A stretch of DNA of 64,000 bases from Chiloscyllium plagiosum (Eukaryota). This document shows positions 19,776 through 61,481 of this stretch, in pieces; within the stretch, counting starts at the first letter, position 1; every line of letters begins with the position of its first letter. The stretch lies in the NCBI RefSeq assembly GCF_004010195.1, contig NC_057744.1:8980416-9044415 (forward strand), written 5' to 3'. The notes under the pieces were generated by a model. The model did not search any database and was not told the origin of the DNA. It saw only the letters and a list, made by a program, of their open reading frames with translations. Position numbers and translations under genes: made by a program.

Positions 19776-19781
19776 TTTAAT
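19776..19781 (-). terminator. Polyadenylation signal (ATTAAA), apolipoprotein-like gene 1
   Basis: ATTAAA lies about 55 nt after the stop codon, within a 3'UTR motif shared by all three paralogs. Confidence 0.7.
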
Positions 19782-19835
19782 TTGTGTTCGTTATCCCGAA
19801 TTTTCTTCATTAGTGTCAGAATCCATCAAATAACT

Positions 19836-20301
19836 TTATGGCAATTCTGGTGTTTCTGCACTTGGTTTTGCAGCTTTGGACAATTCGACAAGTCTCTTGA
19901 TTTCATGAGCTGCAGGCGCCACAGATTTCCTCAAGGTTTCAACTCCCTCTGTGAATTTTCCATGGAACAACTGAACAAAAGATCCAAACAACTGATGAAT
20001 ATGCTCCATGTTCTGTGTGAGTTCTTGATAAACCCCATCTCCTGAAATCTGCTTGAGAGGAACAGTTGTAAAGTTCAAATTGAACTGGTTGATGTTTTCC
20101 TTCAAATTCTCCAGATGCTGGGTGATGCCTTCAGGTAAATCCGGGGTCCTTTCAAGCAGGGAGCTCAACCTTTCTCTTATCATACTTGTCTGGTCATGAA
20201 GATTTGTGCTAAAAGTTTGCATTTGCTGTTGGATTTCTTTCGACAGCAGGGTCATGTTCTGGGCAAACTCTTTCAAAATGGGACTTGGATCATGGATATT
20301 C
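19836..20301 (-). CDS. Apolipoprotein A-I/A-IV-like gene 1, last coding exon (exon 4)
   Basis: Acceptor ttattttctccctccgcag|G is phase 2, and the frame is open for 466 nt to TAA. The translation is amphipathic-helical and includes an ApoA-IV-like segment, ELTQNMEHIHQLFGSFVQLFHGKFTEGVETLRKSVAPAAHEIK. It joins in frame to exon 3. Confidence 0.85.
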
Positions 20302-20439
20302 CTGCGGAGGGAGAAAATAATGCATAACTCTACCTTTCTAGTTTGTAAGTGTCAGTGCTTCTGTGGTACAAAGGTAACACAAGAATCAATGAAATACACT
20401 GGGATAATTAAAATAAACCGAAAATGCTGGATAATGCAA

Positions 20440-22466
20440 GTGAGCAAAGGCTGGTAGGTATACGGAATGCTGGATGACTAAAGAAATTGAGGGCTTGGTT
20501 AAGAAAAAGAAGGAAGCATATGTAAGGTATAGATCGAGTGAATCCTTAGAAGAGGATAAAGGCAGTAGGAGTATACTTAAGAGGGAAATCAGGAGGGCAA
20601 AAAGAGGACATGAGATAGCTTTGGCAAATAGAATTAAGGAGAATCCAAAGGGTTTTTACAAATACATTAAGGAAAAAGGTAACTAGGGGGAGAATAGGGC
20701 CTCTCAAAGATCAGCATGGCGGCCTTAGTGTGGAGCTGCAGAAAATGGGGGAGATACTAAACGAGTTTTTTGCATCAGTATTTACTGTGGAAAAGGATAT
20801 GGAAGATATAGAAAGTTGCGAAATAGATGGTGACACCTTGCAAAATGTCCATATTACAGAGGAAGAAGTGCTGAATGTTTTGAAACGCATAAAGGTGAAT
20901 AAATTCCTAGGACCTGATCAGGTGTACCCTCGAACTCTGTGGGAAACTAGAGAAGTGATTGCTGGGCCACTTGCTGAGATATTTGTAACATCGATAGTCA
21001 CAGGTGAGGTGCCGGAAGACTGGAGGTTGGCTAACATGGTGCCACTGTTTAAGAAGGGTGATAAGGACAAGCCAGGGAACTATAGACCAGTGAGCCTAAC
21101 GACAGTGGTGGGCAAGTTGTTGGAGGGAATCCTGAGGGACAGGATGTACATGTGTTTGGAAAGGCAAGTACTGATTAGGGACAGTCAACGTGGCTTGGTG
21201 CATGGGAAATTATGTCTCACAAACTTGATTGAGTTTTTTGAAGAAGTAACAAAGAAGATTGATGAGGGCAGAGCAGTAGATATGATCTATATGGATTTCA
21301 GTAAGGCGTTCGACAGGGTTCACCATGGGAGACTGGTTAGCAAGGAATAGATCTCACTGAATACAGGGAGAACTAGCCATTTGGATACAGAACTGGCTCA
21401 AAGATAGAATACGAGGGTGGTGGTGGAGGGTTGCTTTTCAAACTGGAGGTTTGTGACCAGTGGAGTGCCACAAGGATCAGTGTTAGGTCCTCTACTTTTT
21501 GTCATTTACATAAATGATTTGGATGCAAGCATAAGAGGTACAGTTAGTAAATTTGCAGATGACACCAAAATTGGAGGTGTAGTGGACAGTGAAGACGATT
21601 CCCTCAGATTACAACAGGATCTTGATCAGATGGGCCAATGGGCCGAGAAGTGGCAGATGGAGTTTAATTTGGATAAATGCGAGGTTCTGCATTTTGGGAG
21701 AGCAAATCTTAGCAAATCTTAGCTTATACACTTAATGGTAAGGTCCTAGAGAGTGTTGCTGAACAAAGAGACCTTGGAGTGCAGGTTCATAGCTCCTTGA
21801 AAGTGGAGTCGCAGATAGAATAGTGAAGAAGACGTTTGGTATACTTTCTTTTATTGGTCAGAGTACTGAGTACAGGAGTTAAGAGGTCATGTTGCGGCTG
21901 TACACGACATTGGTTAGGCCACTGTTGGAATATTGCGTGCAATTCTGGTCTCCTTCCTATCGGAAAGATGTTGTGAAACTTGAAAGGGCTAGAAAAGATT
22001 TACAACGATGTTGCCAGGGTTGAAGGTTTTGAGCTATAGGGAGAGGCTGAAAAAGCTGAGGCCTTTTTCCCTGGAACGTCGGAGGCTGAGGGGTGACCTT
22101 ATAGAGGTTTATAAAATTATGAGGGTAAATAGGCAAAGTCATATCCCTGTGGTGGAGGAGTCCAGAACTAGAGGGCATAGGCTTAGGGTGAGGGGGGTAA
22201 GATATAAAAGGGACCTAAGGGACAACCTTTTCACACAGAGGGTGGTACGTGTATGGAATGAGCTACCAGAGGAAGTGGTAGAGGCTGGTACAATTGCAAC
22301 ATTTAACAGGCATTTGGATGGGTATATGAATAGGAAGGGTTTGGAGGGATATGGGCCAGGTGCTGGCAGGTGGGACTAAATTGGGTTAGGATATCTGGTC
22401 GGCATGGACCGGTTGGACTGAAGGGACTGTTTCCATTCTGTACATCTCTACAACTCTATGAGTCTA
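20440..22466 (+). mobile_element. CR1/HER1-like LINE, 5'-truncated (RT domain to 3' tail), in gene 1 intron 3, antisense to the gene
   Basis: Motifs KPGNYRPVSLT, YMDFSKAFD, SGVPQGSVLGP, FADDTKIGG and FTQRVVRVWNELP, with a few stops and frameshifts. CTCTATGA tail. Confidence 0.95.
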
Positions 22467-22811
22467 TCTGGCAGTATTGATGGGCTGTGAAGAGAAAAAC
22501 TGTGTTAACATTTTGAGTCCACATGATTCTACTTCAGAATTTCAACCCAAAGATGTGTAGTTTGACGATTGGCCATGGCAAATTATCTGTCGTGCCCAGG
22601 GAGGTGCACACTAGATGGATTAGCCATAGGAAATGCAGGGTTACCAGGGATAGGTTGGGGCTTTCAGTCTAGGTGGGATGACGTTCAGAGCATTGGTGTG
22701 TGCTCAATATGCTGAATGGCCTCTTTCCATACTGCAGTGACTCTGCGAACCATTGTCAGATTATTTTACTTTCCTGCTAGAGTCTTGAAAAGCTATACCA
22801 CAGATTCAAAA

Positions 22812-23201
22812 CATTATTAGCAGCACTCACTACAGCAACAACTTATTGATGTCTTTAACTTCGTAAATCCACTGAAGGCTCTACACAGCATAATGATCAG
22901 ATAAGAAATGACAGCAGGGGTTAAAGAAAGGAAAATTAGGACAGTTGATTAAAAGCTCAAAGAGGGAGGTTTTAAGAAATGGAGGCGTAGAGGTTTGTAG
23001 AATACATTCTAGACCTTGGGGCTTAGATCACCATAGGTACCCACGTCAACACTGAGGATAGAAAATGGACGCTGCATATGAGGCTAGATTTAAAAGAACA
23101 CGGAGTTTGCAGTTGGTAGAGTTAGAGGAGTTTACAAAGTTCATGTGGTATGGGGAGACTGTGGAGGTAAAGAGCATGGAGGGCTGGAACTTTAAAAGTG
23201 A
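22812..23201. repeat. ~400-bp segment (old L2-like 3' end) duplicated at 25594-26015
   Basis: Long shared strings such as TGATCAGATAAGAAATGACAGCAGGGGTTAAAGAAAGGAAA and CACTGAGGATAGAAAATGGA. Confidence 0.85.
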
Positions 23202-25009: not shown

Positions 25010-25103
25010 ATTGATATATTGACAAAGTTAATATCAGTGAAAGGGCTTTCACCACGAGTTGATCCAGCATCTGATGCAACGGGAAAGGCACGAGCCACCA
25101 TTC
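25010..25103 (-). CDS. Apolipoprotein-like gene 1, exon 3 (94 nt)
   Basis: Acceptor ctttttctgttttcttgagcag|GA and donor AT|gtaagg give phases 1 and 2. Translates as (G)MVARAFPVASDAGSTRGESPFTDINFVNIS(M), completing the signal peptide. Confidence 0.85.
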
Positions 25104-25189
25104 CTGCTCAAGAAAACAGAAAAAGAAACATGCACATTTATCTTTGAAATCATGTGAATAATAATTTCACCCATCCTCATTAACATCAA

Positions 25190-27150: not shown

Positions 27151-27193
27151 CTTTTGCCAAGAATAGGACCAAAGTAACCACAAGTATCTTCAT
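27151..27193 (-). CDS. Apolipoprotein-like gene 1, exon 2 coding part (signal peptide, 43 nt; whole exon 27151-27211)
   Basis: Acceptor tgtcttttcacag|, Kozak-like atcATGA, translation MKILVVTLVLFLAK(G), donor G|gtatgt. A 43-nt coding length with a phase-1 intron matches APOA1 and APOE exon 2. Confidence 0.88.
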
Positions 27194-28079
27194 GATGATC
27201 AGTTTCTCAACCTGTGAAAAGACAATGTCACCTGTTAGACCTTGAAATTTCAACGATTAAAAGTGAGATGAATGATAAGCTTTGGACCACAAAACCCATG
27301 GAAACAAAACCTGGAATGCAATGGATCCCACTGTTTGTCCCACTGTGACCCCACTTTCAGGTGTGAGTGAGATTTGTGAAAGTGAAGTGTTTAAACTACA
27401 CTGCTTTTTTTAAAAGATAGAATCCTACCTTTTCACTGCTAGAGCAGAAATCAGGCTGCAGATACAGTCAGGCCTTCCCACCTGTTAAAAAAATCATATG
27501 GATTTAAGGGGGCCTTGCTATTCTTAAGACACAGTCCAATTGTCAAGGCAGCCATTGCAGTCTTGGAGCACAGATCCCAAAATATTGTCTCATAAGAGCC
27601 AATATAACATCGATATAACTTTTGACCTCTGAACGTGTCTCAGTATTCTACAGCCAATGTTTGAAATGCGGTCGCTCTTGGAACATCGGAACCACATCAA
27701 CTAATTTGTGCACAGCAAGCTCCCATGAACAGCAATGTGGTAATGACCAGATAACATGTTTCTCTAATGTTGATTGAGGGATAAATATTGACCAGGACAA
27801 TGAGGATCAGTCAGGCTTCTTTTCTGAATAAGGCCACATCCATTCACGAGAACAGAAAAGACATTAGATCAATATCTCAAAGACATTATCTCTGACTCCC
27901 TTAGTAATGCACTGGAATGTCACCTTAGCTCTTTGTGTTAAGCTGCTGGAGAAGGTCTACAGAGCCAAGTTTATTACACTGATACCAGACAATAAAACAG
28001 CAATTATTGCGGAAGAAACACACAATGTAGACTGGTTAATTATAGGAAATTGATAATTAGATTTTGGAAGCCTTGAAAA

Positions 28080-30650: not shown

Positions 30651-32386
30651 CTTCTGCCTTTTTTTTTATTTTTGTTCACATCTTTTGGGTGACAGAAATT
30701 CTATTAAAATATGTATCAGCGAACATATCACTTGGTTAAGAATACACTTCAGTTCAGGGATGTCACATGGCCATTTGGTCTAACTGATCTAGACCAGTGT
30801 TTATATTCTGCATGAGTCTCCTCCCATCTTATCATTACTGCCATCAGATTCACCCTCTTTCAATGGGCAGATTGATAAACACTCTTATCAGAGTGTGTCA
30901 GAATGTACGTTGATAATCGGATCATTTCAGCAACAGCTAAAGAGTAAATAGAAACTATTGATTTACAACAGTTCCCGACATTTTTCTTTAAAACAAACCA
31001 ATTTTCCATCACAAGCAAAACTGCAGTTGAATCTCCAGCAGCTGCAGTATTTTCCTTTTACTGTAACATCTGAAGGTGTACTGGGTTGGAGCTCTTACCT
31101 ATAAGCTCTGAGACATATTAGTTAAATAAGCTACCACTAAATCACCCATGTCTCTAATTAAGGTAATAATTAACAAGCACTGCCAAGCAGGAACAGTGGG
31201 ACATGGTTTTCAAAGTGCACAGCATAGTGGTATGGCAGCCTCACAATTGTGATTGTTGAAAGAATCCTGGAGCACATATAGTCGGTCCCTCAGTTTCTAA
31301 TAAATGATTGAAATCTCACGCAATTCAAAATTAATCACTAATTTAATAATGCAAAATGGAATACTCCACACAGGAGGTAGGCACATTCGTGCACAATTTA
31401 GAAAGATACCAATTACTCTATATTACGCCAATTGGAACTATGATTTTTTTTGGGGGGGGGGCGGTGGGAAATTGCAAATTTAGAAATGGAACCGGACCAG
31501 CATATAACTGGTCAAGGAGACAGTGCATAGCGATCATGTTATTGAACTAGAAGCTCCCGTTCGGGCTGTTGTGGAGGAGTGGTAATATCTCTTCCTCTGA
31601 GCCAGGAGGCCATATGTTCCAGAGATGTGTAATAACATTACCGATCTTATCGTCCAGGGACTCCAGACAATATTTTGACCTTATCTCCCCTAATAACATT
31701 ACCGAACAAGTTGACTAGGAAAATATTTAGAGGCTGGAGATTAAAACTGAGGACGCGAAGTCACACTGCCTCCAATGACGAGGGAACTTTAAATTCATTC
31801 TGGAGTTACATAACAATAAAATATTGCCCAGTTTCCAGTTCAACAATGTCCTTAAGGAAAGGATGTAGCATTTGGGAGAGAAATTAGCGCTGCTAATTAT
31901 CACTTTCAGCTTTACACTCCTGATTAAAACCGCAGACGTGTCCGATACTAATTTCCACAGTTTACCAAAAAAGGCCATGATTTTGTTCCTTTCACTTTTC
32001 CTCATCCCCAGGGCTGCATGGTCTCTTGGCGGATCACATCCTCCGGTGTCCCGCTCCACACCACAGTGAACATCAATCCCACATTGGGAGGAACAGGGGC
32101 TTGTTCCACCCCAGTGTCACCACACACACACACACTCACACACACACACCTGCATGACTGGGAGGAGAAATCCCAGGCGCAAGTCTCTGTCCCACCACCC
32201 ACCAAAGCGGCGACATCATGGGCAATTATAACTGCCCTACTCTCGGCACAGAGACTGAATCTGCTATTTTAGTCCAGACGCTTCACCACTGGTGAAAGTG
32301 AAAATTTCACACACTAAGAAGAACTATTCGTCAGGTCGCCACAAAATAAACTTTTTACAACCGTTAATTCATCCTGAAACACTTAC

Positions 32387-32420
32387 CTCTCTGTCTTCAA
32401 TCTATTGCTTTCTGTTCCAA
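32387..32420 (-). other. Putative non-coding exon 1 of apolipoprotein-like gene 1 (5' end estimated)
   Basis: A consensus donor GAG|gtaagt at 32387/32386 lies 62 nt downstream of GTTAATAAA. Gene 2 has the same geometry. Confidence 0.55.
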
Positions 32421-32448
32421 CTGATTTCCCAACTTCCCTTCCCTGAGG

Positions 32449-32535
32449 TTTATTAACCTGCTGTTATCTCTTGCGTCTGATAAAGAGGGAACAGTAAACT
32501 ACAGACGGAGCTTATTTTTCGTTTTGTAGCAAACA
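32449..32535 (-). promoter_or_regulatory. Putative promoter of gene 1 (TATA-like GTTAATAAA, paired GATA sites, FOXA-like site)
   Basis: GTTAATAAA at 32449-32457, AGATAA at 32464-32469 (-), TGATAA at 32478-32483 (+) and TGTTTGC at 32529-32535 (-). Confidence 0.5.
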
Positions 32536-35939: not shown

Positions 35940-35945
35940 TTTAAT
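35940..35945 (-). terminator. Polyadenylation signal (ATTAAA), apolipoprotein-like gene 2
   Basis: Lies 45 nt after the stop codon, within the shared 3'UTR motif. Confidence 0.7.
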
Positions 35946-35990
35946 TAAGTATTCTCTGTGCCCAGTGAACCTCATTGGAGTCAGAAACCA

Positions 35991-36447
35991 TTAAGCTTTT
36001 TTTTTCAATCGCTGCGATTTCAAGAATTTTATCATGCCTTCGTTTACCACGTCAACCACAGATGTAAAATATTCCTTCATCCCTTGAGTGAATTGAGTGA
36101 AGTTTCCAGAGGTAGGAGTGGTTATGTTGTAAATTTCTTCCACCCGGTGGGTGGCGCCCTCATATATCGAATCCAAACCATTAATCAGATTCTCACGGTT
36201 AACATTGAGGCTTTCTGAAAGCTGTTCCAATTCCTCATGAATGGAGGATATTGTTTCATTGTCAACTGCCTCATATAATTCTTTTGTTGCCTGCTCCATC
36301 CTGTCATAGATCAAACTGGCCTGCTCTAACAGAAGAAAATAGGCATCCTCCCCTTTCCACTTGATGTTCGTTAACCATGGGAATAGTTCCACTGATGAAT
36401 ATTCAACCAAAATTTTGAGAAATGTCGTAACACCTTCTAAATTTGAC
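35991..36447 (-). CDS. Apolipoprotein-like gene 2, last coding exon (exon 4)
   Basis: Acceptor tgttttttttctataaag|G is phase 2, and the frame is open for 457 nt to TAA. The acidic amphipathic-helical translation (SNLEGVTTFLKILVEY...IHEELEQLSESL...YNITTPTSG...KKKA) is homologous to exon 4 of gene 3. Confidence 0.85.
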
Positions 36448-40827: not shown

Positions 40828-40981
40828 TTTGCGAATTTACTCATCTCAGTCTGTGACAGAATATCAGAAACAGCTCTGGTTATGTCAGTCCCTTGTTTTA
40901 ACAAGTAATCAATGGATTGTTGCGTGTGTACAGATTTGTTCGATTTGGATTCATCCTGTGGGATAACACCACCCTGAGTTC
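40828..40981 (-). CDS. Apolipoprotein-like gene 2, exon 3 (154 nt)
   Basis: Acceptor ctttctttctatgttcctgcccag|GA and donor AA|gtgagt give phases 1 and 2. Translates as (G)TQGGVIPQDESKSNKSVHTQQSIDYLLKQGTDITRAVSDILSQTEMSKFA(K), resembling the ApoA-I pro-segment/QDE and the exon-3 block ending 'SELGKQL'. Confidence 0.9.
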
Positions 40982-43768: not shown

Positions 43769-43811
43769 CTTTGATGATAAAGAGCACTGAAGCAACTGCG
43801 AGAATCTTCAT
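43769..43811 (-). CDS. Apolipoprotein-like gene 2, exon 2 coding part (signal peptide, 43 nt; whole exon 43769-43834)
   Basis: Acceptor tctctattaattgcag|, Kozak accATGA, translation MKILAVASVLFIIK(G), donor G|gtatat. It is paralogous to gene 1 exon 2, including the TTGAGAA in the 5'UTR. Confidence 0.88.
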
Positions 43812-44094
43812 GGTAGTGTCAAGTTCTCAAAACTCTGCAATTAATAGAGAGCTGGATGAATGAATGTAATCATACATTTAGAATGATATAAAGAAGAGAG
43901 GAATAATTACAAATTATGTAAAATAAACATAACATTAAATTACTAATGAAATCTATTGTTAGGTCTGTTAAGTGACAAAAGCAACCATTGGAGCCTGATA
44001 GATGATAAGGTGTTCCTAGATTCTGGGTAGTTAAATCCATCGATATCTTCCCCTGACATTCTATTCTTCCAATCTTTGCACACTGAGAGAGAAG

Positions 44095-48512: not shown

Positions 48513-48541
48513 GCCCGCTTTGTAAACCACAAATGTTAAGA

Positions 48542-48630: not shown

Positions 48631-48699
48631 TCCTGTCAATGTCTGTTTAACCTAATCCATAAACTAGCTACCACTATGGCCAATTCTATCTGTGTCTGA

Positions 48700-49540: not shown

Positions 49541-49649
49541 AAAGTGGCCTATTCTTGAGCCAGAGAATTAAATCCATAGTTAGAGTGTTTGATTTGCAAA
49601 ACTCCTCAATAATAAAGATAGAACAGTCTAACAAGATAAATCACAGAAG

Positions 49650-50390
49650 AATCACAGAAGTCTTACTGTGCAGAAAGAGGTCATTCAACCCATCATGTCT
49701 GCACCAGCTCTTCCAAAAAGCACTTACCCAGTGACAATCCTGTGTTTTTACTCTTTACCCTGTGTGCATTATTTTTATCTAAATAATCATTCAATGTCCC
49801 TCTTGCATGCCTCAATTGAACCTGCCTCCACCATATTGCTAGGTTGTGCACTCCAAATTCTAACTACTCACTGGGTGCTTCTTTTGGAAATCATTTAAAA
49901 TCTATGCCCTCTCATTTTTGTCCCTTATACAAGCAGGAATAGTTTCTTCTTACCAACTCTATCCAGTCTGCTCATGATTTTGTAAACCTCTGTCAGATCT
50001 CTTCTCAGCCTCTTCTCTTTTGGGAAAACAGTTCCCAACATCTTCAATCTATCCTCATCACTGAAACCTTTCTTGTAAATCATTTTTGGGCTGTTTCCAA
50101 TCCATTAAAATCATTGCACTGCTGTGGTACCAAGAACTATATACATTACTCTAGCTGAGGTCTAACAAGTGTCCTGTACAAGTTCAACATTACTTCTTGC
50201 TGTTGTACTCTAAGCCAAGGACACTGCATGCTTTATTAATTGCTCTCTCTACCTGTTCTGCTGCCTTCAATGATTTGTGTGTATATACACCCATGTTTCT
50301 CTGCTCCTGTACCACCTTGAGAATTGTACCCCCTATTTTGTATTGTCTTTCAGTGTTCTTCCTGCCAATATCCATAACATTCTGAAAGTA
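49650..50390 (-). mobile_element. Old CR1 LINE 3' part
   Basis: VQEQRNMGVYTHKSLK..QVERAINKA on the minus strand. Confidence 0.75.
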
Positions 50391-51019
50391 GTGAGTCCCA
50401 ATCTTTTGTTCTTTTCCCATATCTCTGAAATATCTGTCACAAACAAGTACTTGGTACCAATAAAATGAAGGCTATGGGATCATTTTAACTTATTCTGCCT
50501 GGTGGGAAACTGCTTTATGTTGGACCCCTGATGTTACGCCTCACTCCGTTTAACTTTTCACTGAATTTTGAGGAGATAAAAATCGGGCAGTTTGTAAAAG
50601 CAGTGCCAAGTGATTCTATCAAATTCTGGGAAGAGTTTAGATTAAAATTACCTCCAAACTCAATTCCATCTGCTGAAGTCACATTTCAACAGCTAGTCCA
50701 TAATAATATTTTAATAATTAAAGAAGTTGATAATGATATGGATGCTGAGCCATGTACAATAAGATTTATAATTGTTTATTGAATTGCTGAAAGTATAACC
50801 ACAATGAACTTCAATTTACAGAGATTTTCTTTAAGATGATTATCACAGTTGTTAGTAACAACAATCTGTATGCCATAAATTTCTCTAATAGATGCAAATA
50901 AAACATTCATTTAAATTATTTCTAACATTCTGGAACACATTTTATAAAATACACCATGTTTATGACTGTAAGGTATAACAGCATTTGACTGAGCTATCTG
51001 GGCTGTTAGGTAAGCTAGT

Positions 51020-51520
51020 ATTTTGTTCAGGTCTGGTCATTGCACAATAGCAAATGTGTTATTGCACCAGAGAGAGTGCAGAGGAAGTTCACCAGGATGT
51101 TGCATGGCCTTGATTGTTTCAGCTGTGAAGGGAAATGACATAGCTGGGGTTGTTTTTCTTGGAGCTGAGAAGGCCGACAGGTTCATTGAGGTACACAAGA
51201 TTATGAGGGCCATAGATAGGGTCACTGGGAATAAACATTTCTCCTTGGTAAAGGGGTCAATTACCAAAGTGAAAGTTTTAAGGTAAGGAGCATTTAGAGG
51301 GGATTTAAGGACATACTTTTTCACTCAGGGGATGGTGAGTTTCAGGAACTCACTGCGTAAAAAGATGATGGAGGAGGGAACCATTGCAATATTTAAAAAG
51401 TATTTAGATAACTATTTGAAATGCCATAGTATATATGGTTATGGGTCAAGTGCTGGGAAATGAGCTTAGAGTAAATAGGTGTTTGATGACTGGCATGAAC
51501 ATAATGGGCAAAAGGGACTC
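51020..51520 (+). mobile_element. Old CR1 LINE 3' part
   Basis: IEVHKIMRAIDRV and TTTTTCACTCAGGGATGGTGAG. Confidence 0.75.
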
Positions 51521-53179
51521 TTACCATTTTATAATAGTTTTTAATGGCACTCTGAATGGTTCAGTTAGTAATACATCCTACAGAAGAGCCATTACCTCAC
51601 TTAGACCTCTGTTATCTTTTGTTCCCTAGTAAACCCTTCACTGCAGCCTCCTTGTTCCCCTGCGATAGCCTCCATCTCCACTTTGTCAAGTGTTAGTGAG
51701 GACAACGGTTTAGCCGACCTTAATCAGACTGCACTAAACACAAGTTATCTCACCCTTCTCTGCCAACACTGCACACTACTCCAAGATTGTTCTGGGGAGC
51801 AAAAGCAATCCTTGGTTTCTTGGATTCTGTCTCACTTCACTCCTTTGCAATCTCGACCCTCCTCTCACATCCCAACAATGGCCTTCAAAACCAATTGATA
51901 TTATTAGTACAACTCTCTCTGATACATCCCTTTCACTTACAAAACCCTAGCTTGCATCCATGTTCTCCAAAAGCTTCTACATAATCTACACAATACACAG
52001 GCATTTAAATCCTGTGCCTGACATCAACTAACTGGTGTGGCACAAAGTCCTGTAATGTGTCTTCAACCATCATGTGAGTGTATCTAAAGGAAATAGAATG
52101 GTCAGCGTAGAGTACAGAGCATGGAATTGAGAAATTGTCACAGTCTATTCCATTAGCTTTTATCAAGTTCAGGAGTGATTGTCTTCAGCATCAAAGGGTT
52201 ACTTATTCAGATTCCCTCTATGGCACAGCGAGAGACCGAATTAAAGTAAGCTTTATAAACAACTGAAATATAAAAATAGAAAAAGCAAATCAAAACAGCA
52301 TATAAAATCAAAAATAATAACCTGTCTAAAACAAGTCAGAAAGCCAAAAAATGTATGTAGTTCAGCCAACTACTCACCAGCAGCCAATTGATTGAATGGA
52401 CTGTTCTAACTTCCTTCAGATTGTGGATCATTGGCTCGGGGGCTCTTGTGGTATAATGGTAGTGTCTGTACCTCTGAGCTATGTGATCTGGGTCAGTCTC
52501 ACCTTCAATACTCCGGAGGTGTGTAATAACAGCTCTGAACAGGTTGTTTAAAATAGCTGTCCCATTTCTGAATGAACTCAATCCATTCAGCAAGGAGGTG
52601 TGATCTTCCTAAGAGGTACAGAGCTCCAGTTCAGGCTTTTCAAAGGGAAACAACTGAGTTGAGGGGAATGGAATGCCTCCTCGCAATGGACTGTGGAGAG
52701 GACTCAGCAGAGGGTTAGAATCAAAGGTTATGGCTTTTCTTCTCTGGCAAAGTCTCTATTCTGTGGTGATCTCTCGTAGTGAAACCACAGCAACAGGAGA
52801 CAGAGAGGGCAACTCGATAAGAAATGATAGAAATTCCATCCTCGATTTTCCCTGTAGCTGATTGAGAGCCCCACACTCCCACCTCCACAAGGTGGTATTT
52901 TTATTTTATGATCGCTGATTCAACACGAGCAGCAAGTCATTACCTCATGGCTCAGTTTGAAAGTCTGTATCCAACAATCTTCCAATACAGTTGGCTTCCA
53001 GTATATTGGCTTCTGCTGTTAATCGAGCAGATGTAACGAACCAAAAGCTAAAATAGGTTTTCAGAATATTATGTAGATGTAAAGGGCAACTGCTCTTCTA
53101 TGCAACGCAGATGAGAACATTCTAATAACAGTCTATAGCGGAAGTTCTATAAATTGAAAGGTTACAACATTCAAAGGCA

Positions 53180-53530
53180 TGGGAAGGCAATAGCCCAGTG
53201 GTATTATTGCTAGACTATTAATCCGGAAACCTGGGAAATGTTCTGGGGACCCAGGTTTGAATCCTGCCATGGCAATTGGTGGAATTTGAATTAACAAAAG
53301 TCTGCAATCAAGAGTTGAATGATGATCACGAAACTGTTGTTGATTGTTTGGGGAAACTCCATCTGGTTTCCGAATGTCCTTTATGGAAGGAAACTGCTGT
53401 CCTTATCCAGTCTCTACATGTGACTCCTAACCAATAGAAATATGGTTGACTCTTACCTGCCCTCCAGGTAACTAGGGATGGGCAATAAATCCTAGCCAGT
53501 GACACCCATATCCTGTGGGTGATGAAAAAG
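53180..53530 (+). mobile_element. tRNA-derived SINE, second family
   Basis: GGCAATAGCCCAGTGGTATT...GGTTTGAATCC head and a body shared with 15895 and 47500. Confidence 0.78.
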
Positions 53531-53914
53531 AAGTCCACTTTTACCAGTGGCCTCGCTAGAGACAATCTCATGGCAAACTCATGGTATGTGGGAACTGTAA
53601 ACACCAGGAAGCAGATCTTTTAATGTGCTTACAGCAGTTATTGAATGAGATTAATACCGAATTTTGTAACAATTTTACCATCCACAATATGCATGAAATC
53701 CAGTTATACAGGGGTTCAGTACAGCTCAGCAGACCTACACTGGTTTTGCCCAATCTACAACAAAAGGTCTTGTTGTTTGAATTAGTAAACTGTATATCTA
53801 ATGACCATGAACATTTACCCTTTTCTATGATATTGCAATTCACATCTGACATGATATGTTTTCCTGATTTTTGTTTAGGCTTCAGTTTACTAGGCAGGCT
53901 CAGTTCCTGCAATT

Positions 53915-54150
53915 ACATCGAACATCACAGCGCAGTACAGACCCTTCAGCCCTCGATGCTGCGCCAAGCTGTGGAATCAATCTGAAGCCCTTCTATCATA
54001 CACTATTCCATTTTCATCCATATGTTTATCCAATGACTATTTAAATGCCCTTAAAGTTGGCGAGTCTACTGCTGTTGCAGGCAGGGTGTTCCACACCCCT
54101 ACTACTCTCTGAGTAAAGAAACTACCTCTAACATCTGTCCTATGTCTATC
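53915..54150 (-). mobile_element. CR1 LINE 3' end
   Basis: FFTQRVVGVWNTLP on the minus strand. Confidence 0.8.
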
Positions 54151-54469
54151 ACAAGTACCCCTTTGGAAATTGCTCTGTTTTACAATTGAGTTGTCTCTTG
54201 TTTCTTTGCCTTTGGGCAACATGAATTTGACAAGTTAAGTAATTTAATGGGAACATTCAGACTCAATGACACCTCAGGACTGGCAGAAACACAGTGTTCT
54301 TCTGGTGTACATCAGAGGAAATTTCTCTTCATTAGCTCCACTTGATGGAAGGGACAAGAACAGATACTGAGCTTTATCATCTGCAGAGGACTAACTTGTG
54401 GAGAACTTCATGGGTTGAGATGCTTCTTCCCATAAAGGTAAAGAGTACAGTGGCTTTAAACCTTAATGT

Positions 54470-56975
54470 ACTACAACCCTTCTGCGTGACCTACAACCCT
54501 CCTCTAACCGGAAGAAAAAGACTCTGTAAGGTAAGGCTTGTATTTTTTCTTTATCTTTCTTTTTCTTATATTTAAGTGCATTGTTTGGTTTTTAGTTAGT
54601 TCACATAAAGCAAAGCTTACAATGGCAGGGGACCTCAGACCCGAGGCATGTGCCTCTTGCGTGATGTGGGAGCTTAGGAACGTGTCTGACGTTCCTGACT
54701 CTTACACTTGCAGGAAGTGTGTCCAGCTGCAGCTGTTGTTTGACCGCATGAAGGCTTTGGAGCTGCGGATGGACTCACTGTGGAGCATCCGCGATGCTGA
54801 GCAGGTCGTGGATAGCCCAATTAGTGAAATGGTCACACCGCAGGTTAGAATTGCTGAGGGAGAAAGTGAATGGGTGACCAAAAGGCAGAGAAAGAGCAGG
54901 AAGGCAGTGCAGGTGTCCCTTGCAGTCATCTCCCTCCAAAACAGGTATACCCTTTGAATACTGTTGGGGGAGATGGCTCACCAGGGGAGGGTAGCAGTTG
55001 CCAGGATTATGGCACCGTGGCAGGCACTGCTATTCAGAAGGGCGGGAAGATGACTCATAGGGCCATAGTCATAGGGGATTCTATTGTGAAGGGAGTAGAT
55101 AGGCAGTTGTGTGGCCGAAAACGGGACTTCCGGATGGTATGTTGCCTCCCAGGTGCTCGGGCCAGGGATGTCACCGATCGGCTGCAGAGCATTCTAAAAG
55201 GGGAGGGTGAACAGCCAGTTGTCTTGGTGCATATAGGCACCAACGATAGAAGTAGAAAACAAGATGAGGTCCTGAAAGAGGAATTCAGGGATCTAGGAGA
55301 GAAGTTAAAGAGGAGGAGCTCAAAGGTAGTGATCTCAGGGTCACGACCAGTGCCAGGTGCTAGCCAGCGTAGAAATGAAAAAAATAGACAGGATGAGCAC
55401 GTGGCTTGAGGGATGGTGTAAGAGGGAGGGGTTCAGATTTGTTGGACATTGGGACCGGTTCTGGGGAAGGTGGGGTATTACAAAATGGATGGTCTACATC
55501 TGAACCAGACCGGAACCCATGTCCTTGGGAGAGTTTTTGCTACTGCTGTTGGGGAGGTTTTAAACTAATGTGGCAGGGGGCTGGGAACCAGAAGAGAAAA
55601 CAAGTAGGCAGCGAGGTGGAGACTGGAGACTGTAAGAATTGTGAAGATAGCATTAATAAGGGAAAGAGTCGGCAGAGAGCAGGTGAGCGCAAAAAAAATG
55701 GTGGCCTGAAATGCATCTACTTTAATGCAAAGAGTATAGTGTGTAAGGCAGACGAACTTAGGGCTTGGATTGGTGCCTGGGAGTATGACATTATTGCAAT
55801 CACAGAGACTTGGTTGAAGGAAGGGCACGATGATTGGCAACTAAATGTTCCAGGATATAGACACTTCAGACAGAACAGGGAGGGAAATAAAAGGGGGGGG
55901 TGGAGTTGCATTGCTGGACAGGAACGATATCACGGCTGTGCTAAAGGAGGACACTATGGAGGTCTTGGGTACTGAGGCATTATGGGTGAGCTGAGAAATA
56001 AGAAGGGTGCAGTTACATTGTTGGGGCTGTATTACAGACCTCCCAACAGTGAGTGTGAGGTAGAAGAACAAATAGGTAAACAGATTATAGGAAGATGTAG
56101 AGGCAATAGGGTAGTGGTGATGGGAGATTTTAATTTTTCCAACATTGACTGGGATACACTTAGCGTCAGAAGTCCGGATGGGGTAGAATTTGTAAGGAGC
56201 ATCCAGGAGAGTTTTCTAGAGCAGTATGTCAATAGTCCGACGAGGGAAGGGGCCATATTGGACCTGGTACTGGGGAATGAGCCAGGCCAGGTGGTAGAAG
56301 TTGCGGTGGGGAACTTCTTTGGGAACAGTGACCACAACTCTCTAAGTTTTAGAATATTCGTAGATAAAGAAGAGAATGGTCCTAAGGGAAGAGTACTAAA
56401 CTGGGCCAAGGCCAATTATATCAAAATTAGGCAGGAGCTTGGAAATATGGATTGGACACAGCTATTTGAAGGGAAGTCCACATTTGATATGTGGGAGGCT
56501 TTCAAAGATAGGTTAAAGATAGTGCAGGATAGGCATGTCCCGTTGAAAGCAAAGGATAGGAAGGGCAAGATTCGTGAACCATGGATGACAGGAGAAATTG
56601 TACGACTAGCCAAGAGGAAAAGGGATGCGTACATAATGTCTAGGAAGCTTAGAACAGAACGGGCCCTGGAGGAATATCAGAAGAGGAATCAAACGGGCTA
56701 AAAGGGGTCATGAAATAGCTTTGGCAAGCAGAATTAAGGAAAACCCCAAAGCATTTTATTCTTATATAAGACGTAAGCGGGTAACTAGAGAAAGGATTGG
56801 CCCACTAAAGGATAATGAAAGAAGGCTGTGTGTCGAACCTGAGAGAATGGGTGAGATTCTGAATGATTACCTTGCATCAGTGTTCACTGAGGAGAGGAAC
56901 ATGATGAATGTTGAGATTAGAGATAGAAGTTTGATTAGTCTGGATCACGTTGACATAAGTAGGGATTCTATGATT
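54470..56975 (+). mobile_element. CR1 LINE 5' half: 5'UTR, ORF1 (zinc finger + SGNH esterase), ORF2 APE endonuclease; RT missing
   Basis: ORF1 motifs CASCVMW..CRKC, IVIGDSIV, CLPGAR and VVLVHIGTND. Endonuclease motifs YFNAKSI, IAITETWL, GLYYRPP, MGDFNF, LDLVL and SDHN. Frameshifted. Confidence 0.93.
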
Positions 56976-57019
56976 CCAGGAATGCAACTACTTTCCTTAA
57001 TTATCCGGTTGTTAGAGAT

Positions 57020-57106
57020 GAAAATGGGTTGCTGGAACAGCGCAGCAGGTCAGGCAGCATCCAAGGAACAGGAGAATCGACGTTTCGGGCATAAGCCCTT
57101 CTTCTT
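57020..57106 (-). mobile_element. Penelope pLTR fragment flanked by a 13-bp direct repeat
   Basis: GGTTGTTAGAGAT occurs at 57007-57019 and 57107-57119. The insert is similar to the arm at 60665-60736. Confidence 0.75.
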
Positions 57107-58744
57107 GGTTGTTAGAGATCACAAGTTTGGAAAGTTCTGTCGAAGGCCATTGCAATCTTCAATATTGAAAGTCTATTGATTGTAGGAGAATTATTTGGCA
57201 AGGTATATCAAAGAAAACTCTGCTGTGTTTTAACTATTTCCCTTACGCTATTGATTAATCCTGAAAGGTCTCATACCTGCCTGAGTTTAATCTTGCAGAT
57301 TAGAATTGTGACTGATTTCCCAACCTTCCGTCTCTAAGTTTAATGAAGTTTTTATTAAGATGCAGGGTAAAGAATTTTGACCTTTTGATATTTACCTGCA
57401 ACAAACATTGAATGTTGAAAGAATGCTATCAGTTCATGTTGTTCTAATGTTTCAGACTAAATGCAATCAAATTAAATGGAAAATCCAGATATCAGTGTTG
57501 TTAATTGTATCTGGCTGTAAGTTTGTTCTAAACAGATCTGTCCTTGGAATCAAAAATTAAATGCATGACAGCAACTAATTCTCCAGATCTCAACTTGCTG
57601 GTGAGGACAGGGTGAGGAGAGAAATAGTAGATTCTGGTAATTCTTCTGTTTTTCAACTCCTTATCCCCACCCTACCTAATTTGCTACAAAGTAAAATCAT
57701 GAAAGTCAAAGCAAAACTTGTTTTTTTAAATTCAGCAAATGTCAAAAAGAATCATCAACAAGTGCCTTTTTGCTTAAGAACCAAAGCCAGAGAGAGAGAG
57801 AGAGAGACAAACAGGCTAGGCCCTACATCCTGATTACCAAGGGAGGGGGAGAGGGACTAGGGCTGAGATAAGCACTCAGAATTAAATAATCTTGTGTTGC
57901 CTTTTGGCGGCACACACTCTGAGCTGGTCTCAGTGGAAATTGTACAGAAGTGGTTCAGCCTGAGGTTTACCACTCTCCTGGCCCACTATGTGGGTAGGTT
58001 GTTGCAGAGGGGGAAGGAGGAGGAGAAGGGTGTGTTCTTTCCCACACTAAACAGCCTGTGTGTCTGAACGTGTGTGTCTGGTTCACGTACAGCTACACGG
58101 CTTTTTTTTCCATCTCTCTCACGCTCAAGACGTAACTATCCTGGAGCCAAGGCCTAAGTTGTGGGTCCACTTGTCTCGGTAGCAAGATGCAATCTGGGTA
58201 AAATAGCCTCCTCCTGGCCATGCTCCCACCCTTCCTAGACATGCTCAATTAAGGATGACAGTGGTTAAGATAGTAGGGCAGGCTAGGAAAGTCACTCTCA
58301 CTGTCCTTCATTCACTCACACCCTCACTCCTCTCTGGCCCTGAGGTCTTTTGCCAATTTGAACCCTGCTGTCAAATGGTGGCTCAGTGCTACAGTGCCTC
58401 ATGTAACCAATACATTGAGTTATGTTTTGACACCGACCACTTCCTTCAGAATGTCTTACCAGTTTCAGTCAGGATACTTCCTTATCTATTCTGTTGACCT
58501 GAACAGGTAAATGCATTTAAACGCACGACCTATAAAGTGTATGCCAAACATGTTGTTCCCTACACACCTGACAGGTAAGTGATTACACAGATAGCTTTCA
58601 AAGGTATCATAGTTTCTCTTGTGATATAAAACACATAGAGATTAATAGTACTGAGGAGATGTGAAGTTGCGAAATTAATCACAGCTCAATGCAGGACTAA
58701 GCTTCAAGCCAGATAGTTCAGGTCTTGTGATTGAAGTTGACAAT

Positions 58745-59020
58745 GCAAGTCAGTACTGAGGGTGTGCCACACTGTCTCAGCTGCCATCTTTCAGATCAAT
58801 CATTAAATAAAGGTCTTGTTATCTCCCATAGTGTGATTTCAGGGAAAATGATGTGAGTTGTCCATGGTGCATTGGTGAATATTTATCTCTCAATCAGTAT
58901 CATAAAAACAAATGACCTTGTCACTATCACATCGCTGCTTGTGGGAGCTTGCTGTGTGCAAATTACAACAGTGACTAAACTTCAAAAAAAGTACTTTATT
59001 GGCTGTAAAGAGTTGTGGGA
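58745..59020 (+). mobile_element. Deu-domain SINE, degenerate
   Basis: CAGTACTGAGGGTGTGCCACACTGTC...AATATTTATCTCTCAATC...TTGTGGGAGCTTGCTGTGTGCAAATT. Confidence 0.65.
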
Positions 59021-59597
59021 TGTCTGTTTTGTTTCCAACTTTTATTTTTCTTTATATTTCATTAAATAGAGTACATACGCTATAGAGAATATTGAAAATT
59101 CAGCATTCCCACTAATGGTAATGCAGTGCACAAAGTATAAGCATTTTAAATGGTTACATAGTTTCAGAAAGAACAAAGTATTAATTGGACTTGTTTTACA
59201 TAATTATATGGCCTATTTATTTTAAAAGTATCTTTCAAATCTTGACAGAGAATATTATAACCAAAACATCTCATGCATCCATTCCAGCTGGCTGTTGGCA
59301 TTTCTTTTTACTTTTGATTCGATAGACAATCATCTCTAATCAGTGAATTATTAAACAATCAAATTCATGAGCACTCAACGAATGGAAAGCTGCCTGATTA
59401 TTTTTATATTGTCTGTAACAATAGACAATAATTACTGTGACATTTCAATTACTCTCCCTTCTGTGTCTTTGCAGCTACATACTCCGTATTTTCTGAATCA
59501 CATACAGAAAGATTTGATGAAACATGATGTTTCCCCTACCTTTTCCAGCAGACCCTCCAACCACATTCATCTTTCTCAACCACCTCACTTTTTGTCA

Positions 59598-59982
59598 GAG
59601 GGTGACCTTATAGAGGTTTATAAAATCATGAGGGGCATGGATAGGATAAATAGACAGTTTTTTCCCTGGGGTGGGGGAGTCCAGAACTAGAAGGCATAGG
59701 TTTAGGGTGAGAGGAGAAAGATATAAAAGAGACGTAAGGAGCAACTTTTTCATGCAGCAGGTGGTACGTGTATGGAATGAGCTGCCAGAGGAAGTGGTGG
59801 AGGCTGGTACAATTGCAACATTTAAGAGGCATTTGGATGGGTATATGAATAGGAAGAGTTTGGAGGGATATGGGCCGGGTGCTGGCAGGTGGGACTAGAT
59901 TGGGTTGGGATATCTGGTCGGCATGGACGAGTTGGACGAAAGGGTCTGTTTCCATGCTGTACATCTCTATGACTCTATGACT
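59598..59982 (+). mobile_element. CR1/HER1-like LINE 3' fragment
   Basis: GDLIEVYKIMRG and VVRVWNELPEEVVEAG, followed by a CTCTATGACTCTATGA tail. Confidence 0.92.
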
Positions 59983-60610
59983 TTAACAGGCCTGAAAATA
60001 TCTTTAGTGGCTTCCAAGTAGGATGTCATTTTCTGAACATAATAGTTTCCCTCTTAATCCAGTTTCACAATCCTCTCATGAGCCAATTAGTTTACAGAAG
60101 GTGAAGTAACACCAAAACGTAATATCTCAGGGTGGGGCTAACATAAGAACTAGAAGCAGGAGTAGGTCATTCAGCCCATTGAGCCTGCCCCACCCTATTT
60201 ACATTCATGGCTGATTTGATAGGGGCTACAACTATATTTTCCTGCCTACCCTCATACCCTTTGCCTTCTTTTTCAATCAAGAAACGCATATTAACACTAC
60301 AATTTGAAACCATATTCCCAGAGCAGTCTGTAGACCTGTCAATTACTATTCCATCTCATTCCCTTACCCCACTAAAATATTTACACTTGATTTTCCAATT
60401 ACACTAAATTCAGGGACAGGCAAAATTCTGCTTTAAAATTAATTCTTAAGGACTTGTTTATTTGGCTATTTTGTTCCAGATTCACATTTTTTGAGACTTC
60501 ATTTGATTGGGTCGGCTGAATAAATGGTCTTTGTTAAGAATGCACAGGCATTATGTACATCCTAGTGTTTCTGGGAAGTGTTGATCAAGCCACTCACTAA
60601 CTAAAGTATA

Positions 60611-60830
60611 TTAGGCAAAAGTGAGGACTGCAGATGCTGGAAACCAGAGTTTAGATTAGAGTGGTGCTGGAAAAGCACAGCAGGTCAGGCAGCATCCAAA
60701 GAGCAGGAAAATCGACGTTTCAGGCAAAAGCCCTTCATCAGGAAGGGCTTTTGCCTGAAATGTCGATTTACCTACTCCTCGGATGCTGCCTGACCTGCTG
60801 TGCGTTTCCAGCACCACTCTAATCTAAACT
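60611..60830. mobile_element. Fold-back Penelope-type pLTR element (89-bp inverted arms) with hammerhead core
   Basis: Arms at 60648-60736 and 60742-60830 with loop ATCAG. The minus strand reads CTGATGA-AGGGCTTTTGCCT-GAAAC-GTC. Flanked by AACTAAAGTATA at 60599-60610 and 60827-60838. Confidence 0.82.
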
Positions 60831-60969
60831 AAAGTATACTGTCAGTTTTTCTTAAAAAAAGACTTGTTTCATTCGTGCCAATTTGTAAAGCTATTAGAAT
60901 ATGTTTGTTTATATTAATTACAACTAACAACATCAAATGGAGGTTGGTTATGTAATGGTTGATTGGTAG

Positions 60970-60975
60970 TTTAAT
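60970..60975 (-). terminator. Polyadenylation signal (ATTAAA), apolipoprotein-like gene 3
   Basis: Lies within the 3'UTR motif shared with genes 1 and 2. Confidence 0.7.
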
Positions 60976-61057
60976 TTGTATTCCTTAATTCACCGCTTTG
61001 GTTTCAGAAGCGATCAGGTGTATACTCAAGTTGCAGTTGATGGTCCTGTGTTCACTT

Positions 61058-61481
61058 TCACCAAGTTTTCAATTCCTCTGTTGCGTTATGAACAAGAGAT
61101 ACAAGATCTTGTAGTTTTTGAACTATTTTTCCAGAGTAAGGAGCAGTTAAGTTGTAGCTTCTCTCCAAATGATGGGCAGCGCTCTGGTATAGCTGATCCA
61201 GATTATTAGTTGTGAGCCTCTGGGTCACATTGGAATGATGGAGGATTTCTTGAAGCTTCTCCAATTTCTCATGAATGGTGGCGTATCCTTCCTGTCCAAT
61301 TACTCCATGTAGCTCTTCATCAACAAACGCCAGTTTCTTCCAAACCAAAATGGTCTGGTTGAGAACCTTATCAATGAGTGGCTCCTCTTTCCATGTGAGT
61401 TCTTTTGCCAAGGTGGAAAGTTGCTTTGTTGAACTAACAACCCAGTCTTCAAGAATTCCATCAATACCTGCTATCTTTGCC
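61058..61481 (-). CDS. Apolipoprotein-like gene 3, last coding exon (upstream exons presumably beyond the window)
   Basis: Acceptor tatttctccccctacaaag|G is phase 2, and the frame is open for 424 nt to TGA. It aligns with gene 2 exon 4 (WK.E, IHE.LE.L.E.L, LD..Y..A.H..E..YN.T.P.SG). Confidence 0.8.

Follow-up and report, generated by a model that had tools for sequence, protein, structure and literature searches.

A tandem cluster of short, diverged apolipoprotein-family genes with predicted N-glycosylation sites in the shark Chiloscyllium plagiosum

A 64,000-nucleotide stretch of contig NC_057744.1 of the whitespotted bamboo shark, Chiloscyllium plagiosum (the window), was found to carry three tandem minus-strand genes which, judged by sequence, are an undescribed branch, nearest to ApoA-IV, of the ApoA-I/A-IV/E family and not a new kind of gene. 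The products are probably secreted, N-glycosylated, shortened exchangeable apolipoproteins, and the tandem cluster probably predates the split between sharks and batoids. Genes 1 and 2 are already annotated by NCBI as 'uncharacterized' LOC122540631 and LOC122540630, respectively; the cluster genes are unnamed rather than hidden, and an earlier note on this DNA, which had called them hidden, overstated the case.

Gene 1 has three coding exons. The signal-peptide exon (27151..27211, minus strand) contains the ATG at 27193, 43 coding nt (27193-27151), and a phase-1 GT donor. The middle coding exon (25010..25103, minus strand; 94 nt, phase 1 to 2) is shorter than its gene 2 counterpart, the exon of the 33-codon block described below. 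The last exon (19776..20301, minus strand) holds 466 coding nt (20301-19836) ending in a stop at 19838-19836, encodes amphipathic helices with sequons at N61 and N122, and is followed to an ATTAAA at 19781-19776. A splice acceptor lies 18 nt upstream of the ATG, and these 18 nt match the N-terminal extension of a Hemiscyllium RefSeq model. A probable upstream 5'-UTR exon was placed at 31966..32019 (minus strand; GT donor at 31965; 5' limit approximate) by its similarity to the first 19 residues of the same model (74%, E 7.7e-8), with an in-frame stop in C. plagiosum. A possible alternative 5'-UTR exon (27429..27481, minus strand; 53 nt, AG..GT) is a weak prediction, its sole basis being its use in a fused C. 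punctatum prediction. The spliced product is a 200-aa protein without internal stops, identical letter for letter to RefSeq XP_043532539.1.

The same arrangement was seen in gene 2. The signal-peptide exon (43769..43834, minus strand) has its ATG at 43811, 43 coding nt (43811-43769), a phase-1 GT donor, and a splice acceptor 23 nt upstream of the ATG. The middle coding exon (40828..40981, minus strand; 154 nt, phase 1 to 2; sequon N29) encodes an N-terminal block with a counterpart in a canonical ApoA-IV-like protein, to which it aligns. The last exon (35940..36447, minus strand) contributes 457 coding nt (36447-35991) that end in a stop at 35993-35991; it encodes amphipathic helices with sequons at N129, N173, and N181, and has an ATTAAA at 35945-35940. 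The spliced protein of 217 aa has no internal stops and equals RefSeq XP_043532538.1 letter for letter. Gene 3 is represented by its last exon (60970..61481, minus strand), with 424 coding nt (61481-61058), a stop at 61060-61058, four sequons, and an ATTAAA at 60975-60970. It is preceded by a pyrimidine-rich AG, encodes 140 aa up to a TGA, and is 87% identical over 141 columns to a 202-aa C. punctatum protein (XP_072449399/400). The N-terminus of this orthologue found no proper match in 61.5-64 kb, and the first two coding exons of gene 3 are outside the window.

All four coding introns of genes 1 and 2 are GT..AG, phase 1 then 2, and ATTAAA hexamers lie 55, 46, and 83 nt past the stop codons of genes 1, 2, and 3, respectively. 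A hydrophobicity scan supported signal-peptide-like N-termini for genes 1 and 2, the 43-nt exon encoding a basic and then a hydrophobic segment. Local alignment of the last exons gave scores of 71 (genes 1 and 2), 65 (genes 1 and 3), and 170 (genes 2 and 3); scores at least as high occurred 0, 1, and 0 times, respectively, in 2000 shuffles. Scanning both strands for ATG-initiated hydrophobic exons with a phase-1 GT end, using thresholds chosen after the two exons were known, returned two matches, the signal exons of genes 1 and 2. A family profile ranked the seven claimed exons above the rest of the 3326 stop-to-stop ORFs of the window and revealed no fourth paralogue among them, a scan that is partly circular given that the profile includes the genes' own proteins. 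No flanking gene was detected among the 233 ORFs scanned. The observation of the earlier note is confirmed: the spliced ORFs of genes 1 and 2, with their GT-AG sites and intron phases, give the RefSeq proteins, and the homologous last exon it had assigned to gene 3 is borne out by the full C. punctatum protein and by the alignments to genes 1 and 2.

The gene layout is that of vertebrate apolipoproteins. Canonical apolipoprotein genes have a phase-1 and a phase-2 coding intron, and the cluster genes share with ApoA-IV, ApoA-I, and ApoE the 43-nt signal exon, these two phases, the large last exon, and tandem clustering. With acceptors preceding the ATGs by 18 nt in gene 1 and 23 nt in gene 2, a 5'-UTR intron is added (the upstream exon of gene 1 being inferred from the Hemiscyllium model), which gives the four-exon layout described for ApoA-I and ApoE (PMC6854765). 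The APOA1/APOE-type architecture first proposed for these genes therefore stands. The cluster genes differ in this respect from mammalian ApoA-IV, described in the same source as having no 5'-UTR intron.

Sequence searches placed the family nearest to ApoA-IV. For the last exon of gene 1, the best Pfam match was PF01442 (E 2.8e-8, under the cut-off), and the best 12 of 16 PDB matches were ApoA-IV or ApoA-I (E 2.5e-4 to 8.6e-3). An 18-member profile searched against the PDB found human ApoA-IV at E 1.1e-20 (best single stretch 1.3e-7) and ApoA-I at 5e-8, with the first unrelated bundle at 5.8e-4. Human ApoA-IV (PDB 3s84, 9hx4) also came first for the gene-1-type profile (E 6.4e-10; first unrelated bundle 4.9e-3) and for the gene-2/3-type profile (E 1.1e-9; next unrelated bundle 6e-4), the latter score being summed over ApoA-IV repeats of which none is significant alone (best single stretch 0.11). 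The two subfamily profiles aligned to each other with a probability of 98.5%. The alignment of the gene-2/3-type with the canonical ApoA-IV-like control (Rhineura XP_061453871.1; 90.7%) spans residues 1-209 and takes in the block that precedes coding intron 2. It runs colinearly through the common 33-codon block that closes the third exon; the gene-1-type is missing ~20-36 columns in this region and has lost much of the middle-exon block. These results uphold the apolipoprotein ancestry that had been suggested.

The Pfam check proposed with that suggestion gave a divided answer: 12 of 21 family proteins matched PF01442 at E<=1e-3, genes 2 and 3 had no match, and none of the 21 reached the cut-off of 90 bits. 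Gene 1 scored 32.6 bits, gene-sized proteins at most 39, and the best, a fused two-gene model, 64.6, compared to 129 for the canonical control. Two AlphaFold models were all-helical with poor pLDDT (40.7 and 53.1), and a fold search with them gave at best a generic bundle (Z 10.5, rmsd 3.6, 167 aligned residues), within the range for unrelated bundles. In the ESM Atlas, both gene queries led to apolipophorin-III and ApoA-I/A-II/A-IV/E clusters at 0.76-0.89, which we treat as leads.

Amphipathic character is retained. Helical-moment z values were 5.0, 4.5, and 4.3 for genes 1-3 (6.4 for the control), and 11-residue periodicity gave lag-11 z values of 3.7, 3.9, and 2.1. The charge layout is class-A-like as in the control but fuzzier, with acidic residues centered 122 degrees and basic residues 102 degrees from the hydrophobic axis (control 132 and 93). 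The 22-residue self-similarity fell to z 1.0 in gene 1 and 1.4 in gene 2, vs. 4.0 in the gene 3 orthologue and 9.2 in the control. The regular Pro-punctuated tandem 22-mers and length of at least 250 aa that mark ApoA-I and ApoA-IV proper were not found in genes 1 and 2, and gene 2 has three prolines in the whole protein. The loss of regular repeats noted earlier holds in C. plagiosum, whereas in several relatives one or two prolines at 22-residue spacing survive close to the C-terminus.

The conserved sequons are a feature absent from the earlier note. Eighteen proteins contained 77 sequons compared to 30.4 +/- 5.0 in shuffles (reached by 0 of 5000), a test that counts related sequences as independent and uses a single control. 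Each of 24 family rows had 2-6 sequons, and the canonical control had none. One site is kept in 12 of 12 gene-1-type proteins and another in 9 of 11 gene-2/3-type rows; N61 and T63 make up two of the eight invariant columns among nine gene-1-type proteins. Mammalian ApoA-I, A-IV, and E are not known to be N-glycosylated. Sequon Asn showed no preference for the polar face, with 56% of 64 lying beyond 90 degrees vs. 69% of 130 other Asn, and so some of the predicted glycans might hinder lipid binding.

A profile search of 1.84 billion representatives returned 22 matches at E<=1e-3, of which 11 carried no organism; 10 of the 11 named were sharks, skates, or rays, and one was a non-elasmobranch. 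Orthologues or paralogues occur in C. punctatum, Hemiscyllium, Scyliorhinus, Heterodontus, Pristiophorus, Leucoraja, Rhinoraja, and Narcine, under the automatic names 'uncharacterized', 'hypothetical', 'ApoA-I-like', and 'ApoA-IV-like'. The tree contained two old subfamilies, gene-1-type and gene-2/3-type, each with sharks and batoids. Family members are 191-231 aa long and paralogues share 18-30% identity, in line with the short length and deep divergence previously remarked. The Logan contigs that carry full-length relatives of both types measure only 1947 and 1191 nt, which suggests spliced mRNA. What had been proposed as a lineage-specific family is better described as an elasmobranch-wide subfamily than as a local cluster. 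A literature search, including 12 identifiers of automatic family models, found no paper describing the cluster genes; 'uncharacterised' is apt to that extent, with genes 1 and 2 in RefSeq and some relatives automatically named.

Insect apolipophorin-III (PF07464; Locusta apoLp-III) is of similar size and is likewise an all-helical, amphipathic, exchangeable apolipoprotein. It was the top ESM Atlas feature match for both genes (0.89, a lead only), with weak sequence support (profile E 0.026 and 0.097 in the PDB) and no PF07464 match at E<=1e-3 in 21 family proteins. The locust protein is reported to be glycosylated at two Asn (PMC9581338). The cluster genes have the vertebrate layout, and apolipophorin-III is an analogy of how such proteins may work, not of family membership. 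Lamprey LAL2 is described as a 191-aa secreted serum apolipoprotein, possibly glycosylated, with eight clustered loci reported as intronless, unlike the intron-bearing cluster genes (PMC7431520). No named LAL2 was among the 22 profile matches (11 without organism).

In the reading we favor, the window would hold the 3' portion of the cluster, whose tandem genes encode mature proteins of ~180-200 aa. A tandem duplication before the shark/batoid split would have produced the two types, with the gene-2/3-type duplicated again. The proteins would be secreted through the ER, N-glycosylated at several sites, and folded as loose helix bundles while lipid-free; they may coat or modulate lipoprotein or other lipid surfaces, binding them reversibly by their hydrophobic helix faces. 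Higher solubility, slower clearance, and lower lipid affinity are the probable effects of the glycans, and would leave the proteins readily exchangeable. Expression in liver or gut and a location in plasma would be expected from family knowledge only.

The genes could instead be fast-evolving elasmobranch orthologues of known apolipoproteins (ApoA-I, ApoA-IV, or ApoA-V/A-II-like) at an ordinary shark locus whose names are missing. The automatic names 'apolipoprotein A-IV-like' in Heterodontus and Pristiophorus and 'apolipoprotein A-I-like' in Leucoraja fit such a reading, and the canonical side of our comparison was one ApoA-IV-like protein. Nevertheless, we consider it unlikely, given 17-24% identity to the single canonical control, lengths of 191-231 aa, low PF01442 scores, largely lost 22-mers, sequons that the control lacks, and the one named non-elasmobranch among the profile matches. 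Somewhat less likely still is co-option from plasma lipid transport, the products being secreted glycoproteins of innate defence (binding bacterial lipids) or of mucus, egg cases, or reproductive fluids. Rapid change between congeneric C. plagiosum and C. punctatum (gene 1 is 93.5% identical, gene 2 85.4%, and gene 3 87%, in a comparison of these genes alone), repeated duplication, dense conserved sequons, and eroded repeats would suit it, as would an ApoA-IV-named protein reported to change in nurse shark plasma after immunisation (PMC9207270). However, amphipathic periodicity and the class-A-like charge layout are retained, and defence and lipid-carrier roles are mutually compatible.

Convergence of amphipathic helices in a family unrelated to apolipoproteins is very improbable. 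The sub-threshold Pfam scores, the generic helical bundles from fold searches, and an insect apolipophorin-III on par with ApoA-I in the ESM Atlas would fit convergence. Against it are the intron in the 5'-UTR, the phase-1 and phase-2 coding introns, the common 43-nt signal exon, and colinearity from residue 1, and ApoA-IV stood ahead of designed bundles by at least five orders of magnitude in three profiles. The exon-intron match already largely refutes it.

The significance of a shortened, putatively glycosylated apolipoprotein branch is modest, since apolipoprotein clusters often expand in fishes, RefSeq already lists the genes, and the function is a candidate one assigned from sequence alone. 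Adding a cluster of three or more deeply diverged genes, common to sharks and batoids, would nevertheless revise the apolipoprotein repertoire and the account of how repeat number changes in this family. The ApoA-I/A-IV/E family would not ordinarily be expected to conserve N-glycan sites, which would echo locust apolipophorin-III. Shark and ray plasma is reported to show no albumin band (PMC9617420), and a link to albumin replacement is speculation: it is doubtful, though conceivable, that sharks and rays evolved small N-glycosylated apolipoproteins of their own as abundant soluble shuttles of fatty acids and other lipids, a vertebrate counterpart of the apolipophorin-III shuttle, and that this cluster encodes the non-albumin fatty-acid carriers of elasmobranch blood. 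The cluster genes would in any case be named candidates for lipid carriage in animals without a plasma albumin band.

The coding exons of gene 1 (27193-27151, 25103-25010 and 20301-19836, minus strand) splice to an intact 200-aa protein, and those of gene 2 (43811-43769, 40981-40828 and 36447-35991, minus strand) to an intact 217-aa protein. All coding introns run GT..AG, in phase 1 and then phase 2, exactly as modeled in the earlier note from sequence alone. The third homologous last exon proposed there was also recovered: it lies at 61481-61058 on the minus strand, encodes 140 aa and is related to the last exons of genes 1 and 2 beyond shuffled expectation, the pair scores being matched by 0, 1 and 0 of 2000 shuffles. 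An ATTAAA follows the stop codon by 46-83 nt in genes 1, 2 and 3. When the 3326 stop-to-stop ORFs of the window were ranked with the family profile, the seven claimed exons came out on top in this partly circular test, and no fourth paralogue was found among those ORFs. A splice acceptor precedes the ATG of genes 1 and 2 by 18 or 23 nt, and the Hemiscyllium model (P0007) suggests that gene 1 has a further exon upstream, close to 32019-31966 (minus strand). Upstream of this putative 5'-UTR exon, unique sequence at 32384-32483 (minus strand) has a strong GT donor at about 32388 and is a possible further first exon of gene 1; it is used by a fused C. punctatum model and is weakly similar to the extension of a Narcine model. 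The first two coding exons of gene 3 are beyond the window. A weak tblastn hint at 63611-63519 (E 0.77) was rejected as its middle exon because the N-terminus of the true orthologue does not match there.

Genes 1 and 2 were described as hidden; they are better called unnamed, because RefSeq already lists both as "uncharacterized" on the 42.3-Mb C. plagiosum contig (gene 2, LOC122540630, XP_043532538.1; gene 1, LOC122540631, XP_043532539.1). Their last exons match C. plagiosum RefSeq proteins at 100%, and the spliced products equal the RefSeq proteins in length and letters. Consecutive accessions (XP_072449399/400, 401 and 402/403) belong to the C. punctatum orthologues of genes 3, 2 and 1. The gene 3 orthologue is complete at 202 aa, signal peptide included, and shares 87% identity with gene 3 across the last exon. 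Orthologues of the two species share 85-94% identity, and paralogues within the cluster share 18-30%. Two models, P0009 (C. punctatum GCC23143.1) and P0011 (Pristiophorus, 420 aa), fuse two neighboring cluster genes; the Pristiophorus fusion bears the name ApoA-IV-like, and its length mimics true ApoA-IV.

Pfam PF01442, the apolipoprotein profile named in the earlier note, matched the last exon of gene 1 (E 2.8e-8) and gave no match for genes 2 and 3. Across the family, 12 of 21 proteins matched at E<=1e-3 and none of the 21 reached the 90-bit cut-off, while the single canonical control, the Rhineura ApoA-IV-like protein XP_061453871.1 (P0027), scored 128.8 bits. In profile searches of the PDB, human ApoA-IV came first for the family as a whole at 1.1e-20 (its best single stretch reached 1.3e-7, and the first unrelated bundle 5.8e-4), for the gene-1-type proteins (6.4e-10) and for the gene-2/3-type proteins (1.1e-9, summed over repeats whose single stretches were all non-significant). 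The two subfamily profiles aligned to each other with a probability of 98.5%. The gene-2/3-type profile aligned to residues 1-209 of the control (90.7%), a span that takes in the block immediately preceding coding intron 2. Section 8 of PMC6854765 places the last intron of canonical genes at the end of that block, and it gives the four-exon layout, which genes 1 and 2 share, for ApoA-I and ApoE but not for ApoA-IV.

The proteins retain amphipathy, with helical moments above shuffles (z 5.0, 4.5 and 4.3 for genes 1-3; control 6.4) and a helix charge layout similar to that of the control. An 11-residue self-similarity is kept (z 3.7, 3.9 and 2.1 for genes 1, 2 and the gene 3 orthologue; control 6.8). 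The 22-residue repeat is eroded in genes 1 and 2, as had been proposed (z 1.0 and 1.4 vs. 9.2 in the control), and scores 4.0 in the gene 3 orthologue; one or two 22-spaced prolines are kept near the C-terminus in some relatives. Insect apolipophorin-III was the top Atlas feature match for genes 1 and 2 (0.89), which is a lead only.

A five-protein profile run against 1.84 billion representatives gave 22 matches at E<=1e-3 and 15 at 1e-10. Eleven of the 22 were tied to an organism, and the apparent elasmobranch restriction rests on these: ten were elasmobranchs (Chiloscyllium, Scyliorhinus, Heterodontus, Pristiophorus, Rhinoraja, Leucoraja and Narcine), one was the lizard Rhineura (E 1.4e-4), and none was a chimaera. 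The Rhineura protein (252 aa), ApoA-I-sized and the sole named match outside elasmobranchs, may mark the bony-vertebrate lineage nearest the family or be a chance match among many apolipoproteins. Word searches added no named species because their matches were so few (two close relatives per single-protein query; five of 2943 candidates for 18 sequences). No alignment includes the likely false positives P0025 (an 886-aa coiled-coil repeat) and P0029 (419 aa, lacking any apolipoprotein match), the fragments P0028 and P0031, or P0024, whose N-terminus looks like intron; the tree omits these five and the duplicates P0009, P0010 and P0014.

The 25-row tree separated gene-1-type from gene-2/3-type proteins with 96/99 support on a long inner branch; the control is itself a long branch, making the root position unreliable. 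Each group holds both sharks and batoids, the fused Pristiophorus and C. punctatum annotations run from a gene-2-type into a gene-1-type protein, as in the window, and two Rhinoraja genes are near neighbors by locus number on one contig. We therefore infer that the cluster is older than the shark-batoid split. The tandem genes of the earlier note are real and correctly described there, and the branch is somewhat broader than the note supposed, with members in sharks and rays. Logan contigs as short as 1947 and 1191 nt carry full-length members of both types, which suggests spliced transcripts in relatives, since the coding part alone spans >7 kb in the window. Two gene-2/3-type proteins, P0016 and P0020, are basic (pI 9.3 and 9.8), against an acidic to neutral 4.6-6.4 in the other family rows, a hint of functional divergence.

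Each of the 24 family rows carries two to six N-glycosylation sequons (N-x-S/T), and the control carries none. With six close orthologues or fragments dropped, 18 sequences held 77 sequons against 30.4 +/- 5.0 in shuffles, and none of 5000 shuffles reached 77, a test that overstates independence among related sequences. One site is common to all 12 gene-1-type rows; another is present in nine of 11 gene-2/3-type rows, the gene 3 orthologue not among them. N61 and T63 are two of only eight columns invariant among nine gene-1-type proteins. Retention of a sequon between sharks and skates at ~30% overall identity points to selection. Sequon Asn showed no enrichment on the polar side of the helix (56% of 64 vs. 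69% of 130 other Asn), which gives no support to a model with every glycan on that side. Mammalian ApoA-I, A-IV and E are not known to carry N-glycans. In a review of human plasma N-glycosylation, the passages found under these names dealt with ApoD, ApoF and references only (PMC4891372), and locust apolipophorin-III is described in part of PMC9581338 as an 18-kDa five-helix exchangeable apolipoprotein glycosylated at two Asn.

AlphaFold runs on 5 and 18 sequences gave pLDDT values of 40.7 and 53.1. Foldseek returned no matches at E<=1e-3, and the 50 entries from VIA-align were generic helical proteins without any apolipoprotein; these structural results are uninformative either way.

A Pfam search for flanking genes among 131 ORFs of at least 52 aa at 1-19800 and 102 at 44500-61000 yielded nothing beyond retroelement domains and a single weak DUF; Rfam and ARAGORN returned nothing in the window. 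A broken LINE copy lies between genes 2 and 3 (54535-57176, plus strand); it contains part of an ORF1 of esterase (GDSL-like) type and endonuclease pieces that change frame. Another broken retroelement (1215-3424, plus strand) combines reverse-transcriptase with endonuclease-like pieces. The match of Pfam ALKBH8_N to its 3' end (E 1.9e-7) is probably repeat-derived rather than a gene. Reverse-transcriptase-like fragments at 20619-22376 (plus strand), which we take to be LINE, lie antisense inside the last intron of gene 1, beginning ~320 nt from the last exon. Fragments in the gene 2 introns at 36930-37537 (minus strand) and 41724-42089 (plus strand) resemble Penelope-type retroelements. Two head-to-tail 295-nt copies, 99% alike, lie within a LINE remnant at 12730-13320 and represent a recent duplication or an assembly artefact.

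Descent from the ApoA-I/A-IV/E family is well supported; the ancestry first proposed is borne out by the ApoA-IV-first profiles and the shared exon layout, and a convergent origin of the likeness is highly improbable. Length and repeat structure both speak against calling the proteins ApoA-I or ApoA-IV proper. It is unlikely that these are true though eroded shark ApoA-I/A-IV-type orthologues, a reading that would be compatible with lipid-carrier function. Co-option for defence or secretions is quite unlikely. PMC9617420 and PMC5570055, citing Metcalf and Gemmell 2005, state that elasmobranch plasma shows no albumin band; replacement of albumin by the shark-and-ray proteins is an attractive but distinctly improbable idea. 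We consider the proteins probably to be secreted, N-glycosylated, shortened exchangeable apolipoproteins, whose amphipathic helices would bind lipid surfaces reversibly and whose glycans would tune how soluble they are, how fast they are cleared and how strongly they hold lipid. The gene structure, homology, amphipathy and sequons were observed; that the proteins are secreted, carry glycans at these sites and bind lipid, and in which tissue, is inferred.

No description of the family turned up in literature searches, which also used 12 database identifiers and covered few subscription journals. The accessible portions of several sources report ApoA-IV, E, M and O among catshark pancreas transcripts (PMC4362833), nurse shark plasma proteins named ApoA-I/A-IV together with ten that are uncharacterised (PMC9207270), where cluster proteins may be listed, and ApoB with uncharacterised UniProt ids in Greenland shark plasma (PMC13701976), neither of two known C. 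punctatum ids being among those shown. The available text of PMC10015161 holds nothing on the family, and that of PMC7431520 describes the lamprey serum apolipoprotein LAL2. The name and length of the 420-aa Pristiophorus fusion could mislead surveys of apolipoprotein repertoires. The cluster apparently represents an undescribed shark-and-ray branch of exchangeable apolipoproteins with conserved N-glycosylation sites.
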